Virus record (IMG/VR): IMGVR_UViG_3300043411_001118
Span: 39,808-103,807 of that record
Strand: one strand, 5' to 3'
DNA: 64,000 bases
Source of the DNA: a virus
The notes below the pieces were generated by a model. It was not told the DNA's origin, made no database searches, and was given only the letters and a program-made list of their open reading frames with translations. Of the stretch, positions 12,204 through 59,453 are shown piece by piece; the stretch's first letter is position 1, and every line of letters starts with the position of its first letter. The position numbers and the translations under genes are program-made.

Positions 12204-12435
12204 CTTTGGATGGATCTATAAGTCCTTGAATATACTCAAGAAGTACAGAAGAATTGCTCATCTCTCCCCAGGACGATTTCTCGCCTCCGATCTTCACACA
12301 CTCCCTATTACAAAAATCTTGAGCGTTTTTTAAAATGAAGTTGGCGCAGGATGTGTATGCCTCGATCAAATTTGGATCGAGCTTCTGAACAGATTCATAC
12401 GAAAATTTCCTAGCTTCTAGACCAACTGCACTCAT
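12193..12435 (-). CDS. Hypothetical protein
   Basis: 80-aa coupled ORF. Confidence 0.55.
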   Translation of the reverse strand: MSAVGLEARKFSYESVQKLDPNLIEAYTSCANFILKNAQDFCNRECVKIGGEKSSWGEMSNSSVLLEYIQGLIDPSKDEV

Positions 12436-13130
12436 GGATTCACCAATTGATATCTAACATTTTTTACTTTTCTTGGAATGAGATATTGTGGACCAGTCTT
12501 TTTAAACCATCTTCGAAAAATATCTTTCTTAAGATTGCTCAACCGATCAATGAATAACGTTCCAATCAAATGATCCATTTCGTGCTGAACACAACACGCC
12601 GCCTTTCCGGTGAAGGTTTCTGTTTTTTCTTCACCTGTTCTAGTCTGATATTTTAACGTCACACTATCAAATCTGTTTACCTTTTCAGACCACCCATGAA
12701 ATGACAAACATCCCTCAATGGAAATGATCTCTCCGCTTGTATCAACAAATGATGGATTGATAAATTCTCTTGCGTCTGTGAAATTATCTGAAACATCCAT
12801 CACAAACATGCTCATGTTAAGTCCGACCTGAACCGCCGCAACGCCATAGCCGCCGTATGCATACATTGTGTTTTTCATTCGGTCTAGGCGAATTGCAACA
12901 TCTTCATCAAAGATTGTTACTTTATTTGCAATCGTCCTGAGTGGACCCACTCCCAATTGAGAATTTAACTCCTTACTTGTCAGAGTCAAAATCTTATATA
13001 ACTCAACAACGTCTCTTTCATCTGTTGTTAATTTTGGAGTCTCTATTGGAGTCTCTATTGGAGTCTCTATTGGAGTCTCTATTGGAGTCTCTATTGGAGT
13101 CTCTATTGGAGTCACGGCATTTTCTTGCAT
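12432..13130 (-). CDS. def: Peptide deformylase with N-terminal TPIE repeats
   Basis: GYGVAAVQVG, EGCLS, QHEMDHL. Confidence 0.95.
   Translation of the reverse strand: MQENAVTPIETPIETPIETPIETPIETPIETPKLTTDERDVVELYKILTLTSKELNSQLGVGPLRTIANKVTIFDEDVAIRLDRMKNTMYAYGGYGVAAVQVGLNMSMFVMDVSDNFTDAREFINPSFVDTSGEIISIEGCLSFHGWSEKVNRFDSVTLKYQTRTGEEKTETFTGKAACCVQHEMDHLIGTLFIDRLSNLKKDIFRRWFKKTGPQYLIPRKVKNVRYQLVNP
13034..13113. repeat. Perfect 12-bp tandem repeat (TTGGAGTCTCTA x6 plus 8 bp) encoding (TPIE)6
   Basis: Read directly from sequence. Confidence 0.95.
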
Positions 13131-13632: not shown

Positions 13633-14568
13633 CTACCACTTAGTTCCAAAAGACAACACCCCATATGTGTGTGTGTTTGCCTTTTGTTCAACATAATCCT
13701 TAGTTCTAATATTGTAGTCGAATCGAATGATGTAGTTGTGATACTCAACATGAATACCCATATTCATTGAATTAACAACGGGTTCTGAATCAACAGTATG
13801 AATATTATCCTGAAACAAACTCCCATCATAATGGAGATTTCTAACAACCGCACGAGCCGACAAATCAAGAGAAGTATAACAAATAAAATCATCCAATTTC
13901 TGAGCATTGTCCATACCCGGAACATTGTATCCGAGTCTCCATCCATGAACGAATTCGAAATCTGTATGGACCGTTCCTGCCCTATAATTTGTTGCTCCGA
14001 CAGAAACAAAATCCCAATCACGAAAATTAGAACGATGGTTTTCCCACATCCTAGAATAGTTAATGTTCAATGTTGGTTCATCTGCAATCTGATTGTCCCA
14101 TCCATTTGGTGGTGCGCCCTTTCCCAGATCGTTATGAATAAATTTTTGAAGTCCCTCCGCGCCCGAATACTTTCCGACAACACCCAATGCAATTTCTGTA
14201 CTGATTCTTCGTTCACTATTTGCATTGATTCTCTTGGCTCTAAATTCTAAGAGTCCAGAATATGGAACATCATCTTCAATGACATTCGGATTTCGAATGT
14301 CATCTGGTGTGTACATGTTCTGTTCCACCGTGAATAATATTCTGGAAAGTTTCTTTGGATCTTGATCATCTACAACCAAAGAAGGAATCGTTTCTGCAAA
14401 ATTTTTAATCGTCTCCGAAGCCTTTTCAGCTTCAATGTTAGTCTGAAACCTAATCTGGGACGTAAAATTTTCATCTGTATTTCCGATGATGTCGTTTGAG
14501 AGATTGAACGAATGTCTTCCGGTGCAACTTGATAGGATTAGTATACAGAGAATTAAGATTTTTTTCAC
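13633..14568 (-). CDS. lpxR: LpxR-family lipid A 3'-O-deacylase (outer-membrane beta-barrel)
   Basis: Signal peptide; ND...D..FT, QNMYTP, D.PYSG, Q..IH and GWDNQI motifs; C-terminal aromatic residue. Confidence 0.85.
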   Translation of the reverse strand: MKKILILCILILSSCTGRHSFNLSNDIIGNTDENFTSQIRFQTNIEAEKASETIKNFAETIPSLVVDDQDPKKLSRILFTVEQNMYTPDDIRNPNVIEDDVPYSGLLEFRAKRINANSERRISTEIALGVVGKYSGAEGLQKFIHNDLGKGAPPNGWDNQIADEPTLNINYSRMWENHRSNFRDWDFVSVGATNYRAGTVHTDFEFVHGWRLGYNVPGMDNAQKLDDFICYTSLDLSARAVVRNLHYDGSLFQDNIHTVDSEPVVNSMNMGIHVEYHNYIIRFDYNIRTKDYVEQKANTHTYGVLSFGTKW

Positions 14569-15097: not shown

Positions 15098-15667
15098 CTA
15101 TTTATTTGGTTTTGGGCGGCGTGTGAGTTTTAAGAAATCGTCAAATGTCTTCTTTTTGTATTTTTCTTGTGCAGATTTTGAAACGGCTGGATCATCTCCA
15201 TCATGACCCGTTCCGGCAATGGCTCCGGTCCCGACTGCATTAGCCGCTGCATCCTCAGTGAATGACTTGATCCATTCCTCAAATTCTTTTCTTCTTTCCT
15301 GAACCATTTCAAACCAATCCGTAACAGACTCAACTAATAGATCTGGATCTCGATCATAGTCTTTATTATTCTGTTCTTTTAATAGGAACAATGCAGCCGC
15401 GAAGGACGCGATTCTGGTTTTTCCGAATGGAAGTTTTTCTAAGATTCTTTTTAAATTGAATACCAATCTATCAAATAGTGTGTATGCATTTTTTTCTTCT
15501 GGAGTTTTTAAATCTTTCCCTTTCTTTAAAACCTTCCCATCCTTATCGATAATTCCCAATTCGAATGCTTTAGTTTTTTCAAATGGTGTGGTCAGACGCT
15601 TCAGTGTTGAATACAACATCAACAAATCAATCGCAACATTTTCTGTTAGAAAACATTTTGTTTTCAT
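15098..15667 (-). CDS. Conserved T4-like head-associated hypothetical protein
   Basis: TPFEKT.AF.LGIID..G, AYT.F.RLVFNLKR, ASFAAAL.L.KE; N-terminal MKTKCFLTE. Confidence 0.7.
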   Translation of the reverse strand: MKTKCFLTENVAIDLLMLYSTLKRLTTPFEKTKAFELGIIDKDGKVLKKGKDLKTPEEKNAYTLFDRLVFNLKRILEKLPFGKTRIASFAAALFLLKEQNNKDYDRDPDLLVESVTDWFEMVQERRKEFEEWIKSFTEDAAANAVGTGAIAGTGHDGDDPAVSKSAQEKYKKKTFDDFLKLTRRPKPNK

Positions 15668-16077
15668 GTCTTTCCTAAAGTCTCTGCTACTTTTAAATCA
15701 ACCGATATATCCTTTGATACAATATTTTCACCATTAATTAGTGGAATTGTATCTGGCATCAGAGAAAGATAAATCAAAAACGTCTTGAGTGTTGAATAGT
15801 GTTTCTTATCTATTCGAAAAAACAAAATCCTCGTTGCAGCCTCGACCCCAAAAATATTGTATAGCACAATAATATGATTTAAAATCAATCTACAGTGTTT
15901 CTCTGTAATGATCTTTCTCTGACGGTATTTAGAAAATAACCGTTTGATATACTTGATCGTCTTTAGATCTTCTTGAAAATCTTCAATGGATAAGCACTGA
16001 GGATTTTGATAATGCCTCATGCAATATTGAGTAAAATTTTCTTCTAAGAGTGGTTCGCAAAATAGCATATTACCCAA
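15664..16077 (-). CDS. Conserved T4-like hypothetical protein (DUF7207-like)
   Basis: Y.NPQC...EDF.EDL...KYIKRL, RLILNHIIVLYNIFG. Confidence 0.75.
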   Translation of the reverse strand: MGNMLFCEPLLEENFTQYCMRHYQNPQCLSIEDFQEDLKTIKYIKRLFSKYRQRKIITEKHCRLILNHIIVLYNIFGVEAATRILFFRIDKKHYSTLKTFLIYLSLMPDTIPLINGENIVSKDISVDLKVAETLGKT

Positions 16078-16104
16078 GTATATAGGGCCATTATGCTATT
16101 TCAT

Positions 16105-17343
16105 TTATGCGATTACTCTTGTTCCTGCTGCTGCTCCAACCGGGGCTGAAATGGTTTTTGTTGCTGCTGTTGCCGCTGTACCACCAGCAAATGTAGCTGC
16201 ACCAAACGATCCATTCGTTAATGTCTCTGTTGATGCAAGAGAGTTTCCACCAGTTCCAGCCGTCTTCGCCGAGAAAACTGCATCCAGTGAATTTTGATCA
16301 GCATCAAGTGCTGACACCGCCGCATGAATCGTCATTGACGTTGCGTAATTTGTTCCAGCTACTCCAGTCAAGTTAACAGCCGCAATCAAATTCGCTAACG
16401 ACTCAGCCGCACTCGATCCAATTTTTACGTTTCCATCAACATCAGTAAGTGTTGTTTGGAATGTATATGTTCTTGAACCAAGAACAACTGTCTCTGTATT
16501 GAGTGGTTGTCCAGTCAGTGTAAGAGTAGCAACCGCCGCAACTGCTCTGTTGCTTTCGACAATTGTTCCACCGAGAGTTTGTGCGCCAATAGAGAGTGTT
16601 CCACTATTAGTAACACCACCAGTGAATGTCGCTCCGGGAAACGATCCATTCGTTAATGTCTCTGTTGATGCAAGAGAGTTTCCACCAGTTCCAGCCGTGA
16701 GTGCTGTGAAAACTGCTGTGTCTCCAACGCCCATAGCCGCGCTTACTGTAGCATGTGCAGTAGTAGCCGCCGCATATCCTGTTCCAGAACCAGCGCCAAG
16801 CATAACAGCCGCAACTAAATTTACTAAAGATGCGTTTGCACTAGCTCCAATAAAAACGTTTCCGTCCACATTTGTTAATACAGTTTGGAACGTGTAAGTT
16901 CTTGCACCGATTGTGACGGTTTCTGTGTCTAGTGGTTGACCGACTAGTGTGAGTGTTCTCGATGCTGCAACCGACGATGGTACTAGTTGGTTTGTTGAAT
17001 TGTCGCTTTGCTTATTATAAACAACTTCCGACACACCAGACTGAGCCGCCGCATAAAGTGTGATGTCTCCACCACCTTGAGTCGATGAAACAACAATGGT
17101 CGAACCAGCCGTAACATCAACTGGTTGACTAAATCGAGTTTTAACCGATAATGCCGCGCCCTGAGTTAAAGATGCTGCAACGAAATATACCTCAGCCGCC
17201 GCACTTGCTCCAGCTTTGCTCGATCCTCTTGGAATGGCAACGTAAACTTCACCAGTCGTAACACCCTCCCATCCACGATGAGTTAATACGCAATCTTCGC
17301 TTGTCACCCATGAAGGTGCAGATGTTAAGGACCAACGTGCCAT
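16105..17343 (-). CDS. Virion decoration/structural protein with duplicated beta-rich domain
   Basis: Ala/Gly/Thr-rich; two ~120-aa repeats; late promoter and GGAG RBS. Confidence 0.7.
   Translation of the reverse strand: MARWSLTSAPSWVTSEDCVLTHRGWEGVTTGEVYVAIPRGSSKAGASAAAEVYFVAASLTQGAALSVKTRFSQPVDVTAGSTIVVSSTQGGGDITLYAAAQSGVSEVVYNKQSDNSTNQLVPSSVAASRTLTLVGQPLDTETVTIGARTYTFQTVLTNVDGNVFIGASANASLVNLVAAVMLGAGSGTGYAAATTAHATVSAAMGVGDTAVFTALTAGTGGNSLASTETLTNGSFPGATFTGGVTNSGTLSIGAQTLGGTIVESNRAVAAVATLTLTGQPLNTETVVLGSRTYTFQTTLTDVDGNVKIGSSAAESLANLIAAVNLTGVAGTNYATSMTIHAAVSALDADQNSLDAVFSAKTAGTGGNSLASTETLTNGSFGAATFAGGTAATAATKTISAPVGAAAGTRVIA
16204..16698. repeat. Identical 60-bp direct repeat (16204-16263 and 16639-16698)
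   Basis: AAACGATCCATTCG...CCAGCCGT is exact in both copies. Confidence 0.9.
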
Positions 17344-17381
17344 TCGATTTCTCCTAGAATTGAAATATCTTTCTAAGTGGT

Positions 17382-17388
17382 TATTTAG
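17382..17388 (-). promoter_or_regulatory. T4-type late promoter (CTAAATA)
   Basis: Upstream of structural gene; same motif precedes gp18/22/23. Confidence 0.65.
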
Positions 17389-17400
17389 CAGATTGAGGAA

Positions 17401-18159
17401 TTATTGAATGGAGCTAATTAGCTTTCTGGCACTAACAATTTCAAAAAAGGTTCTACCTATGATAGAATTCAACTTATCCAGTCTGAACAGGGTATCTCCC
17501 CAGATTGGTCTATAATGTAGACAGTTCTCCGATGGAACAGCTAACAATTGACCTGTCGTTCTCATCGTCCCTCGACCATCTCCCATCCGTAAGGGAGAAT
17601 CGTCCTGGTCCAATTGCATCAATACGTCCATCAATTCGATTGGAGTCTTACTCATCGACATCGATATTTCTGGAATTTTTATATCATCTCGATTAGAAAT
17701 GACTGTTGACGATGACCTTGATAACTCTTTAACAGCCGATGAATATACACCATCTATATTACTGCCATCTAACACAAATGCTTTCTCGGAATTCATCACC
17801 AAAACATTTCCTGTGATCTCTTGTTCCTTTAAAATCTCAATTGACTCTTCTGGAGTTGATGCATATAAAGCTTTTCTGACTCTCAGACCCTCCGGTGAAT
17901 TGTATTTTCTTTCTTCTCGATTCGCCCGTCTAATATCGGATATCTCATTTTCGATATCGATTCTTGGACAAACCAAAACAACTAAACCGTGTTCGTTTAA
18001 TCCTTCGGAGAATCGACTGACCTCATCCCAAAGGAACAAACGTTCGATATCATTTCGAAAACTCTTTCTGATTCTGATCCTTGGCTTATAATTACAGTCT
18101 CGATTCTTCGCCGCGACAAATCCAACACCATTAAAATATTTGCAAACTATAGTTGACAT
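17401..18159 (-). CDS. Ntn-hydrolase-fold protein (putative peptidase/amidase)
   Basis: N-terminal M-S-T-I, AKNRD, SEGLNEHGL. Confidence 0.65.
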   Translation of the reverse strand: MSTIVCKYFNGVGFVAAKNRDCNYKPRIRIRKSFRNDIERLFLWDEVSRFSEGLNEHGLVVLVCPRIDIENEISDIRRANREERKYNSPEGLRVRKALYASTPEESIEILKEQEITGNVLVMNSEKAFVLDGSNIDGVYSSAVKELSRSSSTVISNRDDIKIPEISMSMSKTPIELMDVLMQLDQDDSPLRMGDGRGTMRTTGQLLAVPSENCLHYRPIWGDTLFRLDKLNSIIGRTFFEIVSARKLISSIQ

Positions 18160-18935
18160 TATCCAAACCTTTTCTGATAAGCATTAAAAAGCGAGAACTG
18201 TTTTTTCACCATAGATGCCCAAGATTTTGCTCGATTTTGGAGTGAGTGATCTCCCTCGATGAAAGTTGCGTAATATGCATTAATCAAATATGAAACGACA
18301 TCTGCTGAGTATGTGTCATCGGGAAGATTGTATTTTTTAATCGCCGCCTGTGATACATCCCAATATGCATTTATCCGCTTATCAATGTCATCAGGAAGAA
18401 TGAGTCGCGGAACATCATCCACCAAATAATCGATAAACCCATAAAATTTAGTAACTGGAACACCACTAAATTTCAGAACTATCCCCTGTACCCACGGCTG
18501 AAATTCTATGTCTTGAAAAATATATTTAGCACCATCCAACCCACGTCCACCTGTCTCATAATTAAGAGTTTTCCAAGGCGTTAGTTTTTGTCTGGAGTGT
18601 ATGAATTCGTGGATAAATGTTGATAGTAGGGTTTGTGCAGTTCTGGGCTTATTCCATATCGAATCGTGAACCGTAGGAACTCCCAAATAAATTTCATCTG
18701 GTGTCCTGAATTCTCCGTTAATTGATCCCGATATACGAAACACAACCTCCATTTGCGGCCCAAATTGTTTCGTTTCGTTTGAAAGTTGATCGGCCATTGA
18801 TACCAGATCAACATTACCCTTCGCCCCCATGTCACGAATATTTTTTGAAATAATTTCTTTGGACGATTGATAGAGTTTGTAAAACTTATCAATGAACGAT
18901 TCATTCAGAAACGATTTAAAGGAACGCCCTGACAT
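18159..18935 (-). CDS. Putative zincin metallopeptidase, head-internal protein
   Basis: IHEFIHSRQ ... QDIEFQPW; N-terminal SFKSFLNE. Confidence 0.65.
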   Translation of the reverse strand: MSGRSFKSFLNESFIDKFYKLYQSSKEIISKNIRDMGAKGNVDLVSMADQLSNETKQFGPQMEVVFRISGSINGEFRTPDEIYLGVPTVHDSIWNKPRTAQTLLSTFIHEFIHSRQKLTPWKTLNYETGGRGLDGAKYIFQDIEFQPWVQGIVLKFSGVPVTKFYGFIDYLVDDVPRLILPDDIDKRINAYWDVSQAAIKKYNLPDDTYSADVVSYLINAYYATFIEGDHSLQNRAKSWASMVKKQFSLFNAYQKRFG

Positions 18936-19729
18936 TATCCAAACCTTCTTCGATATATCTGAAACAATTTAAATTCTTTTTTAATAACCTTGATCCAAGA
19001 CGTTGCTCGACTTTTTAACTCATCATTACCAATTTGGAATGTCGTATTATATACATCTATTAAATTCGAAACTGCGTTTGTTGTTGATGGATCTTTAGGA
19101 ATATTAAATTTTTGTAAGATTTTTGAAGTAGCGACAACAATTTCAAATTGTCGTTGACTATCTGGACCCAAAAAAGAAAATTTCATTTCTGGAACTTCGG
19201 TTATTAGTGAATCGACAAACGCATTAAAATTTCCTTCGGGAACATCTATAAATCTTAAAATGGTTCCCTGTATCCACGGTTGAAATTCCAAATCTTGGAA
19301 CATATATTTGGCTTGTTTTAGTGAAGATCTGCCACGTTGAATATAGGATGATTTAAAATATTCCGCTGAAATTTCTTGCCGAGAATGAATGAACTCATGA
19401 ATTATGGTCGAAATCAATTTGGTTATTATATGTTCTTTTCTCCAAACAGGATCAACAAACATCGGAACATATAAATTTATTTTTTTATCGTCTGAAAAGT
19501 ATACTCCGGAGATTGAGATGTTATTTTTTCTATTTTGTATAAACTCAATTTCAATCTTATCTCCAAACCTAGAAAATTCCAAAGAAATTTTCCTCTCAAT
19601 TTTAGGAATGGCATCAGAAATTTTGTTGTTTGCTACTAGCTCATCATTCAAAATTTTTGTGATATTCTGGTAAACAGTATAGAACTTGTCCACGAACGAT
19701 TCATTTAGGAATGTCTTGAATGTTCGCAC
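18935..19729 (-). CDS. Putative zincin metallopeptidase, tandem paralog
   Basis: IHEFIHSRQ ... QDLEFQPW; N-terminal MRTFKTFLNE. Confidence 0.65.
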   Translation of the reverse strand: MRTFKTFLNESFVDKFYTVYQNITKILNDELVANNKISDAIPKIERKISLEFSRFGDKIEIEFIQNRKNNISISGVYFSDDKKINLYVPMFVDPVWRKEHIITKLISTIIHEFIHSRQEISAEYFKSSYIQRGRSSLKQAKYMFQDLEFQPWIQGTILRFIDVPEGNFNAFVDSLITEVPEMKFSFLGPDSQRQFEIVVATSKILQKFNIPKDPSTTNAVSNLIDVYNTTFQIGNDELKSRATSWIKVIKKEFKLFQIYRRRFG

Positions 19730-19737
19730 TGGACCAC

Positions 19738-20955
19738 TTATTTAAAATCTAATTTTTCGAACGCCTCATCGATTGACTCTTTTTTTAAGTCATCGGATTT
19801 TTTCTGAACATCTTTCTCTCGACGATCCGCTTCACGCTCTTGTTGTTTTTTCTTGAAGTCTTTCTCTCGCGCCTTTTCTAAATCGTAGGCTTGCTTATCC
19901 TTAATTCGATCAAGATCGTCTGTTTGTTTTTCTTTTGTTTTCTGAGCCTCTGTCTTATCGAGATCTGAACCTTCCTCTTGGATGTCTACAATATACTGAG
20001 TTGCTAAAAACTTAGTAGCACCCACTCGATCTCCATTAAACAAAACTTTTGGTGCTAATAGTGGTTGGTGCATATTTCCGGATTTAGTAATGATATACCG
20101 ACCATTTTCTTTACGAACAAAAATAGTTCCATTGACCGTATCTGCAACAGCAATTTCTTCATCACGATCAAGTATTTTAATATCTTCTTTTGCCGTTCTC
20201 AATCGAAGACCATCTATTTCTGATGGTGACAGACTGCCAGACTCGTACATAGATTTTTTGTTTTTAGGATCGTCTGGATCTGATCCATAAATTTTATCTG
20301 GATCTAGTTTGTATTTCTTTATTTCTTTATCAATACCAGCTTTAATTTGTTTTGCTAATGTTACGTTTCCGTGTTTTCTGGTTATTTTATAGTCAGAAAC
20401 CCAATGAGCTAAACCCTTTAATACACCATCAGGAACCGACTCATAAAGATTTCCTTCAATATAATTCTTTGCTAAGAAGCTTTTAGCCCCGCCCCTATCG
20501 CCATGAAACACCACTTGTTTTGGTTTATCTTTTGATTGAGTCGTAATGCGATACTGTCCATTAAAAATACTGATGCCCAGTGGTCCAATTTCCGTATCAA
20601 AAACCTGTGCATGTGGAGATTTGTTACGATTCTTTTGAAACTGGTTATCTGCAACTTGAAGATCTCGTTCGGCCTGATCTTGTCGGAGTTTTTCTGAAGA
20701 CTCTGTTATGGTGTCTTTCCCCTTGATCATATCAGTCAATTCTTTTTTGATTTTCTTAGCAACTTCCCCGCGCCATGAGGATGCATTGGAAAGAAATCCC
20801 GCAAGAATAGATGATGCACTGTCCATAATATACTTGTCTGACATCGAGTGAAGATCATACATAGCCTCAAGATATGGCTTAGCTGCAAAATTTACTGGCT
20901 TCCAGTTGGCTTTGATCTCATATGCGATTGTTGAAATTGGACGATTTTTTGCCAC
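19738..20955 (-). CDS. Modular putative head-internal protein
   Basis: Modules delimited by ITE/LYE/MYE/IQE; two homologous internal modules; charged helical tail. Confidence 0.6.
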   Translation of the reverse strand: MAKNRPISTIAYEIKANWKPVNFAAKPYLEAMYDLHSMSDKYIMDSASSILAGFLSNASSWRGEVAKKIKKELTDMIKGKDTITESSEKLRQDQAERDLQVADNQFQKNRNKSPHAQVFDTEIGPLGISIFNGQYRITTQSKDKPKQVVFHGDRGGAKSFLAKNYIEGNLYESVPDGVLKGLAHWVSDYKITRKHGNVTLAKQIKAGIDKEIKKYKLDPDKIYGSDPDDPKNKKSMYESGSLSPSEIDGLRLRTAKEDIKILDRDEEIAVADTVNGTIFVRKENGRYIITKSGNMHQPLLAPKVLFNGDRVGATKFLATQYIVDIQEEGSDLDKTEAQKTKEKQTDDLDRIKDKQAYDLEKAREKDFKKKQQEREADRREKDVQKKSDDLKKESIDEAFEKLDFK

Positions 20956-21183
20956 TTAATTGATCTCCTGCTGTGCTTTGATAATTGAACTAAGGAGTGT
21001 TGCTAAGACACCCTTTTTAAGAACCGTTTCGATATCCTTAAACTCATCTTTGGAAGCCAATTTTTCTAGCTCTCTAAGAGTTTCTACAATCTCTTTTTTA
21101 GCTCGACTCATAGAGACTGTTCCATATCCACTAACATGAATTTGTGGATCGATATCTTCACAAAGATTTTTTAAAGTTTTCAC
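20956..21183 (-). CDS. Small putative head-internal protein (start revised, MKTLKNLCE)
   Basis: GTG overlaps upstream TGA; CTS-like N-terminus. Confidence 0.6.
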   Translation of the reverse strand: MKTLKNLCEDIDPQIHVSGYGTVSMSRAKKEIVETLRELEKLASKDEFKDIETVLKKGVLATLLSSIIKAQQEIN

Positions 21184-21422
21184 TGAATCTCTTCCCAGTC
21201 TTCCCATTTCAACAGATCAATTTCTGCTGTCATGGTAAACTCTATATTCTTAAACCCTATTTCCTCAAGATCCTTTCTCAAGTCCTTAAGTATTTGGTTA
21301 TACTTCCGTTCTCGAATACTGAGTTTTCGGTCTAACTTATTTATTTCTTTTGACTTTAGAAGCTTTCGGCGATGACTTTTAGCCTTCTCAGTGTTTAACC
21401 TACGATATGGCTTTGGTCTCAT
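21180..21422 (-). CDS. Small basic hypothetical protein
   Basis: 80 aa; TAAATA 5 nt upstream of ATG. Confidence 0.6.
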   Translation of the reverse strand: MRPKPYRRLNTEKAKSHRRKLLKSKEINKLDRKLSIRERKYNQILKDLRKDLEEIGFKNIEFTMTAEIDLLKWEDWEEIQ

Positions 21423-21427
21423 AACGG

Positions 21428-21433
21428 TATTTA
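21428..21433 (-). promoter_or_regulatory. Late promoter (TAAATA) heading the internal-protein cassette
   Basis: Intergenic motif. Confidence 0.55.
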
Positions 21434-42613: not shown

Positions 42614-43123
42614 TTATTTTTTGTTGCGCTCTTTCTCTTGTGCGCGTTTCTTCTTGCGCTCTTTCTTTTCACGATATTCATCAATGAACTCAAGCATCGA
42701 CTGGTGATAGTCCGGACTAATTGATGTTGAACCAGGAATTTGCAATTCGATTGCGTCAACTGTTTCGCTATAGGCCATACATTTTGCATAATGAAGATTT
42801 TCTTCCTGTTCGATCTTCCTTAGAAAAGCATACCAAATGATTTGCGTAAAGTATGAAAATGGATTTTTCGATTTTCGTGGGTTAAATTTCCGAACCGCCT
42901 TCAAGCAATTCTCAATCGCATCCCCGACCATTTCTTCGCGGTAGGTGTAGTTTGCAAAGTTCGGTCTCCGAGAGACCCCATCTGCAATTTTCATAAAGCA
43001 TTCCCCGATAAACTCAGGAACCCTGAGTGGTTCAGCTTTATTTTTATTCTTTTTAAATTCTTTTCTGTACTCTAAAATTGCCTTCAAAAATGCCACATTA
43101 TCAACGTAGTGTTGATTATCCAA
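42614..43123 (-). CDS. gp55: Late-transcription sigma factor
   Basis: HYVDN, GECF.KIA, NF.NYTYREEM, NPFSYFTQI. Confidence 0.95.
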   Translation of the reverse strand: MDNQHYVDNVAFLKAILEYRKEFKKNKNKAEPLRVPEFIGECFMKIADGVSRRPNFANYTYREEMVGDAIENCLKAVRKFNPRKSKNPFSYFTQIIWYAFLRKIEQEENLHYAKCMAYSETVDAIELQIPGSTSISPDYHQSMLEFIDEYREKKERKKKRAQEKERNKK

Positions 43124-51690: not shown

Positions 51691-53007
51691 TTACATCAAA
51701 TTCTTGATGTCGATAATTCTCATGTACTTGTTAGTGTTATATGTCAGTGCGCCGTCGATTGTCGATGTAGCAAACGGATTTGATACAACAGCATATCGAG
51801 TCCGGAATCCCATTTTTGGTTGGAAGCTCGACGGATCAATTGCACGAGACAATTCAAGTGGCACGTACGGACAAAAATATATGCCAGCATCCATTTCGTT
51901 GTTCCCTTTGTACACGATACATGCATAGTTCAATGCAGCACTTGGTACATAAGGATCAACGAACACTTTAAATCTCTTGTTGAGTGTACCAACAAAAGTA
52001 TTTTGGGTGTCGCCATCATGTGACAAACTATCTTCTAGTTTGCTGTCATCCAAGAGACCAGCAATCGACAGAGCCGATGCAACATCCGAAGAACAGAGGA
52101 TGTTGTTTCCACGTCCACGTCGAGTATCTTTAGCAATGTGGTTCGCTTCTCTTTCAAGCTGAAACATCAAGCCTTTGATTTTTTCTTCCATCCATCGACC
52201 GTTTGAGTCAGCGTCTAGATCGAATTCACCGGCAACCGCTGTATTGTGTTGAGCACCTTTTTTAGCGTTGTTGTAAATACGTCGAATAAACTCTCTGTTC
52301 ATTTCGGTATTGATTTCAGTTGACAGGATATTCATCAATTCTGATTCAGCATCAAGACCATGAACGTTCTTCAAGTCTTGCTGAATTTCCATTGTCCACT
52401 CGGCTTTTAGTGCGCGAGTTTTTGCTGTCGCAGTAACTTTGTCGATGGAAATCGCCATTTCAGCCATTGTTCCACCGCCAGAGGTTCCGAGTGCTTCACC
52501 GTCAGCAGTATCCATTGCTGTTCCGGGTTTGTAATCGTTCGCTCCAGTTTGACCAGCAGGAGTAGTTCCAGCTTGTGTTCCTGTTCCGGAAAATACTGTA
52601 TTAGCTTCGTCATACAGAGCCTCTGTTCCACCCTGAGTCGAATATTTTGCACGTAGCGCGAACACCAGGCCCGTAGGACCGGACATTGGTTGGTTCCCCA
52701 TGAGGTCAGTGCTCAGGAGGTTCGGCATTGCACGTCGAACAAGTGAAATGAGGATTGGATCATAACCCTTCAGGTTTGTGTTCGTAGGAAACGCACCAGA
52801 TTGGTTAGCATGAGCCGCTTCACCCAACATATCTCCACCAGAGATTTTGTTGAAGTTGTGTTGGCTTTCTAGCATTTGAGCAACAATAGCTTTGCGCTCA
52901 AAACTCTTGATGGCAGGTAATCCTTCCATCTCCAAAAGTGGCTTCCACTTTTGAACCAATCGCTCTTTCTTAGAATTGATTTGCTGTATTTCTTGTTCAA
53001 TTAACAT
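51691..53007 (-). CDS. gp23: Major capsid protein
   Basis: KW.PLLE, LVRRAMP, QPMSGPTGLVFA, RALKA, CPYVPL, FQPKMGF.TRY. Confidence 0.98.
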   Translation of the reverse strand: MLIEQEIQQINSKKERLVQKWKPLLEMEGLPAIKSFERKAIVAQMLESQHNFNKISGGDMLGEAAHANQSGAFPTNTNLKGYDPILISLVRRAMPNLLSTDLMGNQPMSGPTGLVFALRAKYSTQGGTEALYDEANTVFSGTGTQAGTTPAGQTGANDYKPGTAMDTADGEALGTSGGGTMAEMAISIDKVTATAKTRALKAEWTMEIQQDLKNVHGLDAESELMNILSTEINTEMNREFIRRIYNNAKKGAQHNTAVAGEFDLDADSNGRWMEEKIKGLMFQLEREANHIAKDTRRGRGNNILCSSDVASALSIAGLLDDSKLEDSLSHDGDTQNTFVGTLNKRFKVFVDPYVPSAALNYACIVYKGNNEMDAGIYFCPYVPLELSRAIDPSSFQPKMGFRTRYAVVSNPFATSTIDGALTYNTNKYMRIIDIKNLM

Positions 53008-53070: not shown

Positions 53071-54606
53071 TTATCGAACTGTACCTTTAATGACTTTTGC
53101 CAATGCTGAAACTTCTGAATCGACAGCCGCTTCTTCTTTAATAAGCGAGCCGTTACCCAATGCAGTTTCTAGCAATTGCTTGCCCTTAGAGGTTTTCTTC
53201 GAACTGTATACTTCCTTGAGTTGGTTAATATTTTTAACAAACTCTTCTTTTGTTTTTGTCGAAACTTGTTCCATCAATGGTCGAAGTTTTGACTGTTCAG
53301 AAAGTGGAAGATCCTTAATGGATTTTTCGATCAATGAACGTTTCTGTTCTTTGATGATGCGAAGTTTGAGTTTTTTATTTTCTTTTGTTAAAGAAATTTG
53401 ATTCTCAAGTTCTTCGTTCAATTTTTTCTTCAGTTGCTTAGTTTCAGCAATTTTTTGTTCTGCTAAATCTAATTTGTTATCTGGAAGATTAATATTGTGA
53501 TTCGAAAATACTACTTGAAGATCGCGCACAACACCTTCAGCAAGTTCAGAAACTAGTCCCGCTTGAAGCGCAACTCTGTTTTCTTTAGCCCACTGAGTGG
53601 TAACGTGATCGAGGTATCGATCTAGAGCTTCGGTGAGCGTACCCATCTGACCCTTGATCGCTTCGTTCAATTTCTTCTTGAAGACTTTGTTCAGTTTTGA
53701 ACAATGACTCTTAAGAGTAGTTTCATAAATCAGACTTGCTTTTTTCTTGAAGTCAGATTCAGAAAGAGAATTTTTGCCCTTAACAATAACGGCAATATCT
53801 TCCTGGATACTCTTTGGGAGTTCGACTTCTAGTTCTTTTTCATCATCTTCAGACAATTTTTCTTCGTCTTCGTCGCCTTCAGCTTCAACGACTTTCTTTT
53901 CTTCCTCGTCATCACCTTCAGCTTCAACTACTTTCTTTTCTTCCTCATCGTCACCTTCGGCTTCGGAGACTTTCTCTTTGTCTTCCTCGTCTTTTTTAGC
54001 AAAAGGATTTTCGCCCTCATCGACTTTCTTTTCTTCCTCATCTTCGGCTTCCGCGAATGGCTTATTTTTATCGCCATCATCTCCAGCCTTATCAGAAATT
54101 TCATCGTCAGAAATTAGATCTTTTTTATCGCCGTCAACTTCGACTTCATCTTCTTCGGTTGAGATCGACCAATCGATAAGTTTTTCTAATTCTTCATCGT
54201 CATCTTCGCCTTCGGAGACTTTCTCTTCATCGTCTTTTTTAGCGAATGGGTTTCCGGCTTCATCGACTTTCTTTTCTTCCTTGTCATCACCTTCAGCTTC
54301 GACAACTTTCTCTTTGTCCTCTTCGTCTGAATCAGCTTCGGCTAGTTTTTCTTCGTCTTCGTCGCCCTCAGCTTCGACAACTTTCTTTTCTTCCTCATCG
54401 TCGCCTTCAGCTTCAGCAACAGGTGCTTTACCAACGGCGGCAGCAGCTTTTTCGCTAGCTGGATCATTTTCGATAGTAGTGGCATCTTTACCGATACCAG
54501 CACTGTATTTTCCTTGGGCCGCAAGTTCGGCTTCATTAAGCTCCTTTAACAGCGAGGCTGTTTTAGTTAGTGTCGATTTGCTCAGTGCCGGTCTTAGATT
54601 AGCCAT
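53071..54606 (-). CDS. gp22: Prohead core scaffold with expanded acidic repeats
   Basis: LSE.DFKKKA..I.E, LD.YL......W..EN; synteny. Confidence 0.9.
   Translation of the reverse strand: MANLRPALSKSTLTKTASLLKELNEAELAAQGKYSAGIGKDATTIENDPASEKAAAAVGKAPVAEAEGDDEEEKKVVEAEGDEDEEKLAEADSDEEDKEKVVEAEGDDKEEKKVDEAGNPFAKKDDEEKVSEGEDDDEELEKLIDWSISTEEDEVEVDGDKKDLISDDEISDKAGDDGDKNKPFAEAEDEEEKKVDEGENPFAKKDEEDKEKVSEAEGDDEEEKKVVEAEGDDEEEKKVVEAEGDEDEEKLSEDDEKELEVELPKSIQEDIAVIVKGKNSLSESDFKKKASLIYETTLKSHCSKLNKVFKKKLNEAIKGQMGTLTEALDRYLDHVTTQWAKENRVALQAGLVSELAEGVVRDLQVVFSNHNINLPDNKLDLAEQKIAETKQLKKKLNEELENQISLTKENKKLKLRIIKEQKRSLIEKSIKDLPLSEQSKLRPLMEQVSTKTKEEFVKNINQLKEVYSSKKTSKGKQLLETALGNGSLIKEEAAVDSEVSALAKVIKGTVR
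53850..54420. repeat. Imperfect repeats encoding EAEGDDEEEKKVV units in gp22
   Basis: About 10 degenerate copies in the translation. Confidence 0.8.
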
Positions 54607-54662: not shown

Positions 54663-55340
54663 TTAAAATTTCCCCATTCGATGTTTTCCCATTAAAATAT
54701 CAGCGAAAATCTTCAAATAGGTTGCGTTCTTTTTTTCCTCGTTCATCGTCAAAGATGCGGCATTTATGGTCTTTTTTAGCTTCTTTGCTTCTGTTTCTGT
54801 GAGGATGCCGTTTTCAAAAAGGTATTCTTTACATTCGAGAATTCCATTAACAAATGCTTCTGGTGCAGATGGATCAGAAACGATGTCAATTGTTGATAAC
54901 CACAAATCTTCCTGGACGATATCGACTCCATTTTCATTTGCTCGAAGTGATCCCAATGCCCTGGATGAAACACCAATCTGTACATTGTCTTTCAGAAGTG
55001 CTTTGACAATATTTCCTACAGGAGTATCTAAAATTTTTGCTTTACCAATGTAATTCGCGCCCTCTTTGTGGAGAGAAACAATCTTGTGTGACGCTCGTTC
55101 GTAATTAATTCGTGGGCTGTCTGGATGATTTAATTCTCCGACCGCTAAGTTAGTTAGAATTTTTTCTTGGACGAATTGTTGAACGGCTTTATCCATGATT
55201 TTTTCTGGATAAATTCTTCCGTTTCGATTTTGAACATCGGCCTGAAGGAAAATTCCCTCGATGTAATAACTGACTTCTCCACCTTCGTTTGCTTCAACGA
55301 GTGGTTTAACAGAATCAATACGTTCAACAATCAGTTTCAC
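54663..55340 (-). CDS. gp21: Prohead protease
   Basis: NRNGRIYP, GELNHP, GVSSRALGS, DIVSDPSAP. Confidence 0.97.
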   Translation of the reverse strand: MKLIVERIDSVKPLVEANEGGEVSYYIEGIFLQADVQNRNGRIYPEKIMDKAVQQFVQEKILTNLAVGELNHPDSPRINYERASHKIVSLHKEGANYIGKAKILDTPVGNIVKALLKDNVQIGVSSRALGSLRANENGVDIVQEDLWLSTIDIVSDPSAPEAFVNGILECKEYLFENGILTETEAKKLKKTINAASLTMNEEKKNATYLKIFADILMGKHRMGKF

Positions 55341-56324: not shown

Positions 56325-59300
56325 TTATTGTTTATCATCGTCAAGGTCTTCATCGATCACATCTAAAAACTCGAAGTCTCTATCAGAAACGGAAATCTCC
56401 TTTTCGTCGGATTCTTCCGACTCATCAGAATCGTCCTGGAAATCTTCATCCGATTCCTTCGATTCTGGACCACTTTCAACAGTCTCTTGATCACCAGCAA
56501 ACCCAAGTTCTTTTGGTGAATCGTCCTGATCCAATTGTTCAGTATTTTGATCTCCACCAATTTCTTCTAATTCTTCCTCAGTCAATTTGAAAAAATTCTT
56601 CTTAACGAATTCTTTTGAAATGTATCCTTCGGTGATAGGATTTTCGACACCAGCTTCTTTGGCTAAGGTAAGTCTTTCTCGCCAAATCTCAGCCTCTTTT
56701 AATTCTGAAAAATACGAGTCGGTTGCCCACTCATAAACAATTTTCGATTCATTCTCTTCCCAATCTTCCTCACTAACGATATTTTTTAATATGGATTGAA
56801 TTCGTAGTGGTTGATTAAAAAATTGTGTTGCGAATGAATTTCTTAGTTGATTGATGAAGCGCGAAAATTTTAATTCCTCTCTAGTAATTTCTGATGCTCG
56901 ACCAATTGAGAATCCATTTTCTGGATCGAGTCTCATTGTCGGAACGTTTAATGAGTTGTAGAATTTTTTCTTGAAGTAGTTTACGTCTTCTATTTCTCCG
57001 AGATTTGAATTGTTTGTGAATACTCCTACATCTAGAGCGAAGTTATGAAATGAGTGATATTGCTCATCAACATCTATCGTTAATGTTCCTACTTCGATTT
57101 TTTGTGGTAGAAATTCAATGCTCACAATTTTGTGATTATATAATTCTACTTCTTTTCTAAATTGTTTCCATCCAGAGTAACCAAATTTCTTCACAAGTTT
57201 GTAAAGGTGGGTGTGTTTAAATTGGTCGTTATTCCAATTTGCACAATGAGTATCTTTGTTGATATCAATGAAGTGTTGTAAAATGATTTTGTTTTGATTT
57301 AATTCTGTTGTGACATCATGAATCGTTGTGTGGTGTGTGGTTTTTCCAGAACAAATTTTAACGACAGCATCTAAAATGGTTTTGTCTAGAACGATGCGCT
57401 GATGTTCAAAAACCAAGTCTTTAAATTTCTTATCAGAAAATCTAGTTTTGCCTCGGATCGAATGTGCGGCACAAAGTTCTTTGTATTTTTCAGTACCCTT
57501 AAACTTACTCCATCCATTTCGTATTGATTTAGAAAATTCTTTGCGAAATTTTGGATCTGTCTTTAAGAGATCCTGGGTACGTGCATTTCCTAGTTTTCCA
57601 CTTTTCTTACATTTGATACGATGTTGTTCTAAATCGTTTCCGGTTAGATTTTGATAGTGTTTCTTAATTCCTTTTTGCATTTTTTGGCGAATACTCTTTC
57701 GTTCTTTTGTAGAAAGAGAAGCCCACCAAGACGAGGATCGTTTAGAAAGTTCCTTAGTATATTGCTCCCACATAACAGGATCGGATTTCATTTTTTCGAA
57801 TGCCAATCGAGCTAATTCTGTGGCTTGTTCTTGTTGTTCTTTAGTCTTAAATCCTAAAGATCCATGATACAACATATGATCTGTTGTGTTCATCCATCGA
57901 AGATTTTCTGGGCTATTATTAAATCGATTAAAATCTAAGTGGTGAACAACATGCTTAGATAATTTACTCGTCTCTGGATCGAAAACCATTTCATAAATTT
58001 CACCTTTTGTGCGGAAATATTCGGCAACCATTCGATGTGTAGAAACCCATTTTTTGTTATGGTTTTGATAGATCCATTCGTAATTATTTTTACTTGAACG
58101 AATTGGTGCATGTTTGGTATTGTGGGCAATTAAGCTTTCACCAACCAAAAGATCCTTTGCCTCAACACTTCCCTTTCCGATAATTGGAAATTTGTGATCG
58201 GGAGTACAGATAATTTCTTTACCATTGTCGAGTGTGAGTTTAAGAACGTTGGCACTCTTATGAGTCACACCAGCCCAACTAATTTTTCCAGGGACGATCT
58301 CACCTGTTTCTGGGTTAGTGCTATACGACCAATTTAATTTTCCTTGTTTATACTCATCAGCTAGATCTCGAATTGTTAACGTTCGTCCATCAAGCAGAGG
58401 AACTTTCGTATCCATAGCAAGACAACCACCAGGGAGAGTGTCGATTTCCGTTGCGGTACTTCCACCCTTTCGCGGAATCCAAAAATCTTCTGTCATGGCC
58501 TGAATTCTTCGTTGTGAATTGACACCACCATCAGATGAATCGTAAGAAATTTTATTTTTGAACTTAGTCATCATTTCGCGCATGTGTGATTCGACATGGA
58601 TATTTTGCATATCTCCAATATCGATATAAAACACACGTCTTTCCGGCGCTCTTGAGAGTCGATAGATAACAACCGAATCTTCCATCTCTCGGAGTTTAGT
58701 CCAAGGTCGGTATGCTTTATCTAAGTGAGAAATAATTTTCTGTGCGCGAACATCTAACTTTCCTGAGTGAACATAGATGATCGAATTGACATCCAGGATG
58801 GTTCCCGATGTGGACATTGTGTTAGTTGAAGATGGTGTATTCAGTAGTCCAACAGGATTGAAAACGAAATATTCTCTTTCGGTTTTATATACAGATACTC
58901 CAGTGCTAGAAACGTCTTTTGAAACTTCTCTAATTTTTGCAATTTGTCTTGGATCAATGAATCGAATTTCTTGAATTCCTTCTTTGATGTTGTCTTGGTT
59001 TACGACAATATGAAAATAACTTTTTCCGTCGATGTAGTTTGTTCTGAACAGTAGGTGCGCGTCTCGATTGTAATTTACTAGTCCACAAATATATTCAAAT
59101 TCTTCAGTAAGAATTTTTTTAACATCGTCACTAAAATTTGTTTTGTCTAAATTTATTGAGGTTGGACCCTCGTTATCTTCATGGACGATTGCATCGTTAA
59201 CGACTTCAGAAATGGCCCGATCACAATCGGCATCCATTGACATCATTCGATATCGAGAAATTAATTCTGCCTCTGTTCCGTAAATTCCAGACTCTAGAAG

Positions 59301-59453
59301 TGGAAGAAAGCTAGTGATCAATCCACCGGAACTGATTCCAGCATCGATGGTGACAGCACCATCGTTAGACATCTGTGGAACAACAGAAACTGCTTTTTTC
59401 TCTTTTACTTTGAGAGAGAATGCATTTCGGATGAACCCGAAAAAATCAGCCAT
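56325..59453 (-). CDS. gp20: Portal vertex protein containing an intein
   Basis: EDSVVIYRLSRAPERRVFYID, EDFWIPR, GRASEITREE.KF. Confidence 0.97.
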   Translation of the reverse strand: MADFFGFIRNAFSLKVKEKKAVSVVPQMSNDGAVTIDAGISSGGLITSFLPLLESGIYGTEAELISRYRMMSMDADCDRAISEVVNDAIVHEDNEGPTSINLDKTNFSDDVKKILTEEFEYICGLVNYNRDAHLLFRTNYIDGKSYFHIVVNQDNIKEGIQEIRFIDPRQIAKIREVSKDVSSTGVSVYKTEREYFVFNPVGLLNTPSSTNTMSTSGTILDVNSIIYVHSGKLDVRAQKIISHLDKAYRPWTKLREMEDSVVIYRLSRAPERRVFYIDIGDMQNIHVESHMREMMTKFKNKISYDSSDGGVNSQRRIQAMTEDFWIPRKGGSTATEIDTLPGGCLAMDTKVPLLDGRTLTIRDLADEYKQGKLNWSYSTNPETGEIVPGKISWAGVTHKSANVLKLTLDNGKEIICTPDHKFPIIGKGSVEAKDLLVGESLIAHNTKHAPIRSSKNNYEWIYQNHNKKWVSTHRMVAEYFRTKGEIYEMVFDPETSKLSKHVVHHLDFNRFNNSPENLRWMNTTDHMLYHGSLGFKTKEQQEQATELARLAFEKMKSDPVMWEQYTKELSKRSSSWWASLSTKERKSIRQKMQKGIKKHYQNLTGNDLEQHRIKCKKSGKLGNARTQDLLKTDPKFRKEFSKSIRNGWSKFKGTEKYKELCAAHSIRGKTRFSDKKFKDLVFEHQRIVLDKTILDAVVKICSGKTTHHTTIHDVTTELNQNKIILQHFIDINKDTHCANWNNDQFKHTHLYKLVKKFGYSGWKQFRKEVELYNHKIVSIEFLPQKIEVGTLTIDVDEQYHSFHNFALDVGVFTNNSNLGEIEDVNYFKKKFYNSLNVPTMRLDPENGFSIGRASEITREELKFSRFINQLRNSFATQFFNQPLRIQSILKNIVSEEDWEENESKIVYEWATDSYFSELKEAEIWRERLTLAKEAGVENPITEGYISKEFVKKNFFKLTEEELEEIGGDQNTEQLDQDDSPKELGFAGDQETVESGPESKESDEDFQDDSDESEESDEKEISVSDRDFEFLDVIDEDLDDDKQ
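57009..58424 (-). mobile_element. Intein (472 aa) with HNH homing endonuclease
   Basis: LPGG|CLAMDT, block B CTPDH, HNF...FTNN|S; THRMVA...HHLDFNRFNN.PENL. Confidence 0.92.

Follow-up and report, generated by a model that had tools for sequence, protein, structure and literature searches.

A run of genes on the minus strand of a viral DNA sequence of 64,000 nucleotides (nt), located between positions 15098 and 21433, contains several coding sequences whose products begin with short peptides of the type used by phage T4 to direct proteins into its head. The whole of this sequence, referred to here as the window, corresponds to bases 39808-103807 of the 103,807-bp linear IMG/VR contig IMGVR_UViG_3300043411_001118, which is estimated to be 57% complete and whose genes lie nearly all on the minus strand, as do all the features of the run. 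By its sequence, the source of the window is an uncultured marine T4-like myophage, kin of the pelagiphage HTVC008M (Pelagibacter phage) and of Methylophilales phage Melnitz, its closest cultured relatives, both belonging to the Kyanoviridae. The initial annotation of the window had described the run as a candidate cassette of effectors packaged in the capsid, and the layout that it reported, i.e., a TAAATA motif, a series of coupled genes, four tagged N-termini and the HExxH motifs of two proteins, was recovered in full when the letters were read again (Table 1).

Table 1. Features of the run and of the head and transcription genes related to it, with positions in the window (aa, amino acids; ORF, open reading frame).
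Feature	Position	Strand	Remarks
TAAATA late-promoter-like motif	21428..21433	-	5 nt before the ATG of the 80-aa ORF, at the head of the run
80-aa very basic ORF, untagged	21180..21422	-	first ORF of the run
75-aa ORF, weak tag ending L-C-E	20956..21183	-	GTG start overlaps the upstream stop
405-aa modular protein, untagged	19738..20955	-	N-terminal domain residues 3-78 (phrog_13953), repeats 117-166 and 269-322, charged tail
Second TAAATA	19739..19744	-	9 nt upstream of the start of HExxH protein 1; overlaps the stop of the 405-aa gene
HExxH protein 1, 264 aa	18935..19729	-	tag residues 1-10 (19700-19729), HEFIH 19385-19399, Glu148 19286-19288
HExxH protein 2, 258 aa	18159..18935	-	tag residues 1-12 (18900-18935), HEFIH 18597-18611, Glu144 18504-18506
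252-aa Ntn-hydrolase-like protein, untagged	17401..18159	-	Cys6, N19-R20-D21
412-aa Ala/Gly/Thr-rich repeat protein, untagged	16105..17343	-	own TAAATA 38 nt upstream
DUF7207 protein, untagged	15664..16077	-	conserved partner; in HTVC008M, Melnitz and phiM12 it lies upstream of the 189-aa family gene
189-aa protein (phrog_18642/2086 family)	15098..15667	-	9-residue N-terminal extension ending L-T-E (15641-15667)
gp55-like late sigma factor	42614..43123	-	54% identical to the HTVC008M homolog
gp23-like major capsid protein	51691..53007	-	L-G-E|A at residues 61-64, aligning with the T4 gp23 cut site L-T-E|A
gp22-like scaffold	53071..54606	-	20 L/I-x-E sites, three of them L-N-E
T4 gp21-type prohead protease (Peptidase_S77)	54663..55340	-	PF03420, E = 2.9e-42, 140 bits

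The capsid targeting sequence of T4 constitutes the textbook route for the loading of phage proteins that are delivered together with the DNA. In the T4 record, ipII and ipIII start with MKTYQEFIAE, and ipI carries a 19-residue form ending in I-T-E. T4 mutagenesis has established that targeting depends on residues 4 and 7 of the tag, and processing on residues 8 and 10 (PMC9026906). These results were converted into a strict rule, consisting of an aromatic residue at position 4, a hydrophobic one at position 7, L, I, V or M at position 8 and E at position 10. Replacement of the P1 Glu by Asp abolishes processing in T4 while leaving targeting intact.

The four N-termini singled out in the window read as had been claimed: MRTFKTFLNE in HExxH protein 1, MSGRSFKSFLNE in HExxH protein 2, MKTKCFLTE in the 189-aa protein and MKTLKNLCE in the 75-aa ORF. 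Both HExxH proteins fit the T4 targeting and processing positions, the strict pattern appearing as written in the window only in the first of them, and with a two-residue insertion in the second. These two paralogs are 40% identical overall, and their tags, together with the next seven residues, are nearly identical; since the N-terminus of the second, initiated by an ATG, is almost the same, the GTG start of the first is confirmed. The 75-aa ORF is the one that did not stand up well, with a weak tag that depends on the choice of an internal GTG in an ORF that has an ATG eight codons upstream, without a hydrophobic residue at T4 position 7 and with the L-x-E ending at residue 9. No family match was found for this ORF, and it is unlikely to be cargo.

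It could be argued that these peptides are ordinary N-terminal segments, such as the beginning of an amphipathic helix or the M-K-T opening that an AT-rich genome tends to favour, and that the proteins act in the late-infected cell without ever entering a capsid. Lys and Thr are indeed common after Met in AT-rich genomes, but the scores of the 182 N-termini of the genome against the ipII/ipIII tag split into two groups, with four of them at 20-26 (0.075 expected) and the next best at 10. The strict rule, in turn, retrieves four N-termini where 0.094 would be expected (Poisson P = 3e-6), and only two of 889 ORFs (0.2%) in 80 related viral contigs, a control from which it follows that general N-terminal composition is not the explanation for the excess. 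When insertions or deletions of one or two residues are allowed, tags are seen on eight proteins of the genome, four encoded in the window and four upstream on the contig, whose bodies share no sequence similarity with each other except for the two paralogs. Taking into account that the bodies are unrelated and that the codons of the tags differ, conservation operates at the level of the peptide and not of a DNA repeat. The possibility of a common DNA leader or recombination cassette behind the tags was considered separately and ruled out, because the tags differ both in their codons and in the sequence upstream. Judged by the tag alone, the two HExxH paralogs can be regarded as strong cases, and as the sole strong ones within the window.

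The HExxH proteins also show conservation beyond the tag. H111, E112, H115 and E148, the last being a Glu located 33 residues past the motif, are invariant in five sequences that share 21-40% identity, and this combination of HExxH and downstream Glu is, as a predicted metal site, the ligand pattern of the gluzincins. A HMMER search against 1.8 billion representatives retrieved the two paralogs, a metagenomic protein designated P0003 and a spurious RTX-repeat protein, P0003 being the only clear relative; two distant relatives of 227 aa (L007 and L008) were found in IMG/VR. P0003 (459 aa, encoded on a 2-kb contig) is a fusion in which the first 190 residues correspond to the domain of the 189-aa family and are followed by the HExxH domain, with a joint that reads I-N-E|S-L-V-D-K-F-F at the place where the HExxH proteins of the window read L-N-E|S-F-(V/I)-D-K-F-Y.

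The 189-aa protein, whose start is an ATGA-coupled ATG without any in-frame alternative, belongs to a large family (890 matches). A real N-terminal extension, of 6-22 residues and diverse in sequence, is present in 18 of 121 inspected members, and all 18 extensions end in L/I-x-E, with the Glu placed 11-13 residues before the LKRL motif in 16 of them; three additional extended cases from IMG/VR loci end in the same way, giving 21 of 21 in total. An invariant junction inside otherwise free sequence has the look of a protease site, and the tag of the 189-aa protein thus appears to be supported by the comparison with its extended relatives. No solved structure matched the domain of this family. 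In BFVD, it matches longer viral proteins (387-913 aa) in their N-terminal part, a placement that fits a carrier role.

In the light of T4, processing and loading into the phage head can be suggested, with a probability of about 0.6, for the two HExxH proteins and the 189-aa protein. Several observations weigh against this interpretation. L007 and L008 possess a similar N-terminal stretch without the Glu, so that the peptide may in part be inherited from the ancestral protein rather than being a portable tag. The tags of the 189-aa protein and of the 75-aa ORF each miss one of the T4 targeting positions and, taken alone, are not above chance, and a relaxed rule gives only a mild enrichment (8 observed, 2.4 expected) and also catches obvious non-cargo, such as the sheath and a reductase. 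Moreover, 101 of the 121 inspected members of the 189-aa family start at the conserved core, those of HTVC008M, Melnitz and phiM12 among them, which indicates that loading is not general to the family; the members of the family share descent, hence the 21 extended cases do not represent 21 independent events. Tagged genes are not generally enriched near members of the 189-aa family elsewhere, the same two of 889 ORFs in viral contigs being the only ones found.

The claim of a tag on the 189-aa protein is sustained by the end that it has in common with its extended relatives and not by the peptide taken on its own. The initial annotation had made its proposal depend on the motif being kept at the N-termini of homologs, and here the outcome is divided: it is kept in the paralogs, at the P0003 junction and in every extended relative of the 189-aa protein, and it fails in the distant HExxH kin and in the majority of the 189-aa relatives, which have no extension. 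As regards the idea that the peptides are ordinary N-termini, the Glu-less stretches, the sheath and the reductase speak in its favour, but it would leave unaccounted for the fixed position of the L/I-x-E end in the 189-aa family and the I-N-E|S kept in P0003. In addition, the AlphaFold (AF2) model of HExxH protein 1 (predicted local distance difference test, pLDDT, of 74) leaves residues 1-8 disordered and has its first helix from residue 10 onwards. We consider this alternative improbable.

A further difficulty concerns the fold of the HExxH proteins. Comparison of the models with solved structures by Foldseek and VIA-align gave no significant match: the best Foldseek row was IrrE (E = 0.76), VIA-align returned IrrE with Z 4.7 (root-mean-square deviation 5.0, 83 aligned residues) and selecase with Z 3.8, and a wide structure search yielded helical bundles only, none of them above Z 6. 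Among the weak structural rows obtained for residues 1-120, most are zincins (IrrE, selecase, M61, M48 and CapP), and every one lies within noise. Pfam (even at lenient thresholds), PHROGs and PADLOC gave no match for these proteins, PDB sequence profiles offered nothing useful, and the NCBIfam model NF045830 (HExxH) scored 19.5 bits, well below its cut-off of 175. As for further homologs, a word-based search recovered only the query, tblastn against 50,697 phage records found none, and two metagenome scans for relatives were equally negative.

It might thus be the case that the HExxH proteins are not peptidases, and that they use the metal for another reaction or function as non-catalytic inhibitors, wherever they are located. 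The absence of a family or fold match is what favours this alternative, whereas the invariance of the three motif residues and of the Glu 33 residues on, together with the zincin character of the weak structural rows, argues against it, and on balance it seems rather unlikely. Like the gluzincins and their minimal forms (selecase, IrrE/ImmA), the HExxH proteins combine the motif and the Glu 33 residues on with a strand-rich region that, in the model of HExxH protein 1, lies ahead of the motif helix; unlike the zincin metallopeptidases, they fall below every family cut-off and show structural matches only within noise. The designation of the HExxH proteins as proteases stands on the invariant motif and its downstream Glu, the zincin fold being at most putative, and metallopeptidase-like is a fair description of what is predicted for both paralogs.

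The tag is not restricted to the window. Upstream on the contig, it is carried by a 117-aa protein (MKTYKQILKE), a 339-aa J-domain protein (MKKYSTFLLE; PF00226, E = 5e-8), a 344-aa protein combining ParB-like and RelA/SpoT domains (MKFSQFLTE; PF04607, E = 8e-11) and a 137-aa protein (MKSFKEILNE), and one of these tags shares 6 of 10 residues with that of T4 ipII/ipIII. The gene of the J-domain protein, which possesses an HPD motif, lies on the plus strand (G000:C1:5272-6291, equivalent to L002:1773-2792), directly after the genes of the tagged 117-aa protein and of a 421-aa late protein. The 344-aa protein (G000:C1:11608-12642, plus strand, equivalent to L002:8109-9143) consists of a ParB-like nuclease-type domain and a RelA/SpoT nucleotidyltransferase domain, and a TAAATA belonging to its gene lies 5 nt upstream. 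The other strand encodes, nearby (L002:9476-9955, minus strand), a small HD-domain protein which on the basis of a weak Pfam match could be an alarmone hydrolase.

Similar N-termini were also found in relatives. In HTVC008M there are four, none of them annotated, all confined to the syntenic region (107-116 kb; 107221-116426), and one of these, 19 residues long, opens in the manner of T4 ipI and closes with Q-L-E; no homolog of the tagged proteins of HTVC008M was found in the source phage, and no homology was found when the 137-aa tagged proteins of the source phage and of HTVC008M were compared. Melnitz has one tag-like N-terminus, adjoining its DUF7207 gene. The ParB-like half of the 344-aa protein has hundreds of phage homologs, that of Dickeya phage XF4 being annotated as an unknown structural protein, a hint that proteins of this kind may sit in the virion, and in Paraglaciecola virus GD1 the genes beside the ParB-like homolog open with tags identical to that of T4 at up to 7 of 10 residues. 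In other uncultured phages, represented by two IMG/VR contigs retrieved through such homologs (L096:9959-19635 and L117:1163-16828), 6-10 adjacent genes share a leader of 10-21 residues that ends in L-x-E and starts, for example, with M-K-I-T-K or M-I-K-L-K.

The T4 machinery on which head loading would depend is present in the window, with an S77 prohead protease, a scaffold, a major capsid protein whose cut site aligns with that of T4 and a gp55-like sigma factor. The protease, scaffold and capsid set matches phrog_207, phrog_237 and phrog_138, and further T4-type genes encode the portal (56325-59453, minus strand), the tail tube, the sheath and the large terminase. The S77 protease is presumed, by analogy with T4, to be the enzyme that removes the tags. 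The scaffold, of 511 aa, is about twice the size of its T4 counterpart owing to long acidic repeats in its first half, with units like K-V-V-E-A-E-G-D-D-E-E-E-K. The portal gene (gp20) encodes a product of 1042 aa, a length due to an intein with an HNH endonuclease inside it, and its match to PF07230 is split in two, with PF14890 and PF13392 also present.

The genes of the run form a tightly coupled series headed by TAAATA, as had been described. The junctions that follow the 80-aa ORF are a GTGA overlap, a TAA with a GTG directly behind it, a gap of 8 nt, two overlaps of a single nt and an ATGA overlap, and the only longer gaps are one of 57 nt ahead of the 412-aa gene and another of about 27 nt behind it. 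TAAATA occurs within 60 nt upstream of 25 of the 182 genes, including all the head and tail genes, and since it precedes every one of the latter, it is a credible late-promoter core for this phage; no enrichment of sigma-70 promoters or intrinsic terminators was observed within the stretch occupied by the run. Late transcription of these genes from TAAATA-type promoters is plausible. In about 12 genes of the contig the motif ends just 5-6 nt before the start codon (for example at 21428-21433, and at 28xxx, 43xxx and 44xxx), and if it corresponds to the -10 element of a late promoter, the messenger RNAs of those genes would be leaderless or nearly so.

The most likely sequence of events is the following. 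The HExxH paralogs, and very probably the 189-aa protein, would be synthesized carrying, at the N-terminus, a short propeptide of the kind that targets T4 proteins to the capsid. After late transcription, the tag would bind the scaffolding core of the prohead, as it does in T4, the S77 protease (gp21-type) would cut after L-x-E, and the mature protein would remain in the head together with the DNA. At the next infection, the mature proteins would leave with the DNA, as do IPI-III and Alt in T4, and could act before phage gene expression. We infer core binding, cleavage, retention, ejection and action on the host from what is known of T4 (PMC3012670, PMC9026906). The predicted mature cargo is mostly basic, with a pI near 9. 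For the two HExxH proteins and the 189-aa protein, a role as delivered effectors is a more tentative step than loading, and its chances would be somewhat short of even.

Loading and cleavage would not by themselves imply delivery, since the tagged proteins could be assembly or core components, like gp67 and gp68 of T4, that are degraded or expelled at maturation. Most core proteins of T4 are indeed cut to fragments and leave the head (PMC9026906), the 189-aa family is kept beside DUF7207 in many T4-like phages, as core genes are, and the 405-aa protein has five L/I/M-x-E sites near its module borders, which is about the number expected by chance. Nevertheless, the strict conservation of HExxH and Glu points to an enzyme that acts somewhere, the mature HExxH proteins contain few internal L/I-x-E sites in comparison with the scaffold, and the tagged J-domain and RelA/SpoT-type proteins have no obvious role in head assembly. 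A purely structural destiny of this kind appears very improbable beside loading followed by retention of the mature proteins in the head.

The remaining genes of the run offer no evidence of loading, this being the case for the Ntn-type hydrolase, the 405-aa protein, the 412-aa protein and the DUF7207 protein. The initial annotation had suggested that the 252-aa protein, with a predicted N-terminal nucleophile (Ntn) hydrolase fold, could be head cargo, but it has no tag and there is no basis for this suggestion. Its Atlas model (predicted template modelling score, pTM, of 0.76) resembles those of NRDE/TANGO2 (PF05742, template modelling score, TM, of 0.71), AAT/CBAH (PF03417/PF02275, TM 0.68) and viral clusters (TM up to 0.86), so that the fold would be that of an Ntn-hydrolase, both sides of the comparison being predicted models. 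Pfam gave no match for this protein, and NF040521 (C45_proenzyme) scored 20.5 bits, below its cut-off of 85. With its Cys at position 6, an N-terminal nucleophile would need the removal of a five-residue propeptide. No homologs were found in the IMG/VR scan, and only a weak match of 59 residues in phage records.

Neither does the 405-aa modular protein, which had been counted as cargo, carry a tag. Its internal repeats are real (score of 75, compared with 23 +/- 4 for shuffled sequences), and its N-terminal domain recurs at the C-terminus of metagenomic proteins that start with an 11-residue tag ending in L-N-E, and, in phages of Gordonia and Mycobacterium, on its own as a small protein. The 75-aa and 405-aa ORFs are in phase, and between them stands a single TAA with a GTG immediately after it (20953-20961, minus strand). 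The hypothesis that both form a single gene read through the TAA found no family-level support, given that PHROGs matches the downstream part only, and a shared frame has a one-in-three chance of arising by coincidence; the arrangement may reflect coupling, read-through or chance. The 412-aa protein is probably structural, showing weak similarity to an S-layer domain protein of HTVC008M; its gene contains a large internal duplication, and the local G+C content is 43%, compared with about 37% elsewhere.

The run is not a dedicated loading unit, and it also contains this structural-looking gene and the conserved DUF7207 gene. It occupies a variable region extending from the gp41 helicase to the primase, in which HTVC008M-type relatives keep their own tagged genes, the corresponding interval in HTVC008M being a series of hypothetical genes. 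It is flanked on one side by UvsX, a gp41-type helicase and a Dam methylase, and on the other by DUF7768, LpxR, a peptide deformylase and ribonucleotide reductase. The LpxR-type outer-membrane lipid A deacylase, which is full-length (PF09982, E = 3e-57), and the peptide deformylase are encoded just 3' of the run (13633-14568 and 12432-13130, respectively, both on the minus strand).

A broader picture may be drawn, in which a capsid-borne kit of enzymes (two metalloproteases, a J-domain co-chaperone and a ParB-like and RelA/SpoT-type pyrophosphokinase) would act at time zero of infection and the 189-aa family would serve as a domain-sized loading module with L-x-E joints cut by the protease, the whole constituting a modular platform in marine T4-like phages. 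The role of the 189-aa domain as a second loading module is suggested by the P0003 fusion and by the 387-913-aa viral proteins that have the same N-terminal domain. As a complete scheme, this proposal is doubtful.

SAR11 and OM43, the hosts of the related phages, are among the most abundant bacteria of the sea. Should the tagged proteins be delivered, proteases made in advance, a chaperone partner and an alarmone-type enzyme would take part in the first minutes of infection of the ocean's dominant heterotrophs, and injected effectors of uncultured phages could be recognized by a simple rule based on the tag sequence. It has to be stressed that a tag with 6 of 10 residues of T4 persists in a marine lineage distant from T4, where it is borne by proteins of enzyme size whose function is uncharacterized or regulatory, and that the cultured phages HTVC008M and Melnitz have tagged proteins of their own encoded in the equivalent region, so that the idea is directly testable in them.

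To our knowledge, the cargo of the T4 tag is largely limited to a few T-even proteins. It has been suggested in reviews that T4-like phages load varied proteins by means of the tag (PMC9026906), and a full-text literature search found no paper that applies it to marine T4-like phages. The mechanism considered here is that of T4 and is already known; what is new is the lineage, the enzyme-sized cargo, the fusion that joins two cargo families and the junction rule of the 189-aa family.

The system of the source phage resembles that of T4's internal proteins (IPI, IPII, IPIII) and of the Alt propeptide in its S77 protease family, in the capsid cut site and in the N-terminal tag of about 10 residues with key positions 4, 7, 8 and 10. 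As in T4, a single tag is found on unrelated proteins, whose genes lie in variable regions and are preceded by late promoters. The source phage differs from T4 in belonging to a distant marine lineage near the pelagimyophages of the Kyanoviridae, known from sequence alone, and whereas the T4 internal proteins are small and basic, its cargo would be mostly enzyme-sized (28-39 kDa), comprising the two HExxH proteins, the J-domain protein and the fusion of ParB-like and RelA/SpoT domains. The proteins with capsid targeting sequences encoded in the variable loci of T-even phages likewise keep the tag on interchangeable bodies, with a locus content that differs completely between related phages, as it does between HTVC008M and the source phage, but the known T-even examples counter restriction systems directed against modified DNA, a function that cannot be assigned to the cargo of the source phage (PMC3012670, PMC9026906). 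Finally, the giant phages phiKZ, 201phi2-1 and SPN3US also contain many proteins inside the head, some of them enzymes, which a gp21-like protease cuts behind a short motif with Glu as its last residue (PMC9026906); these phages use different motifs of their own and large propeptides, whereas the source phage has the short form of T4.

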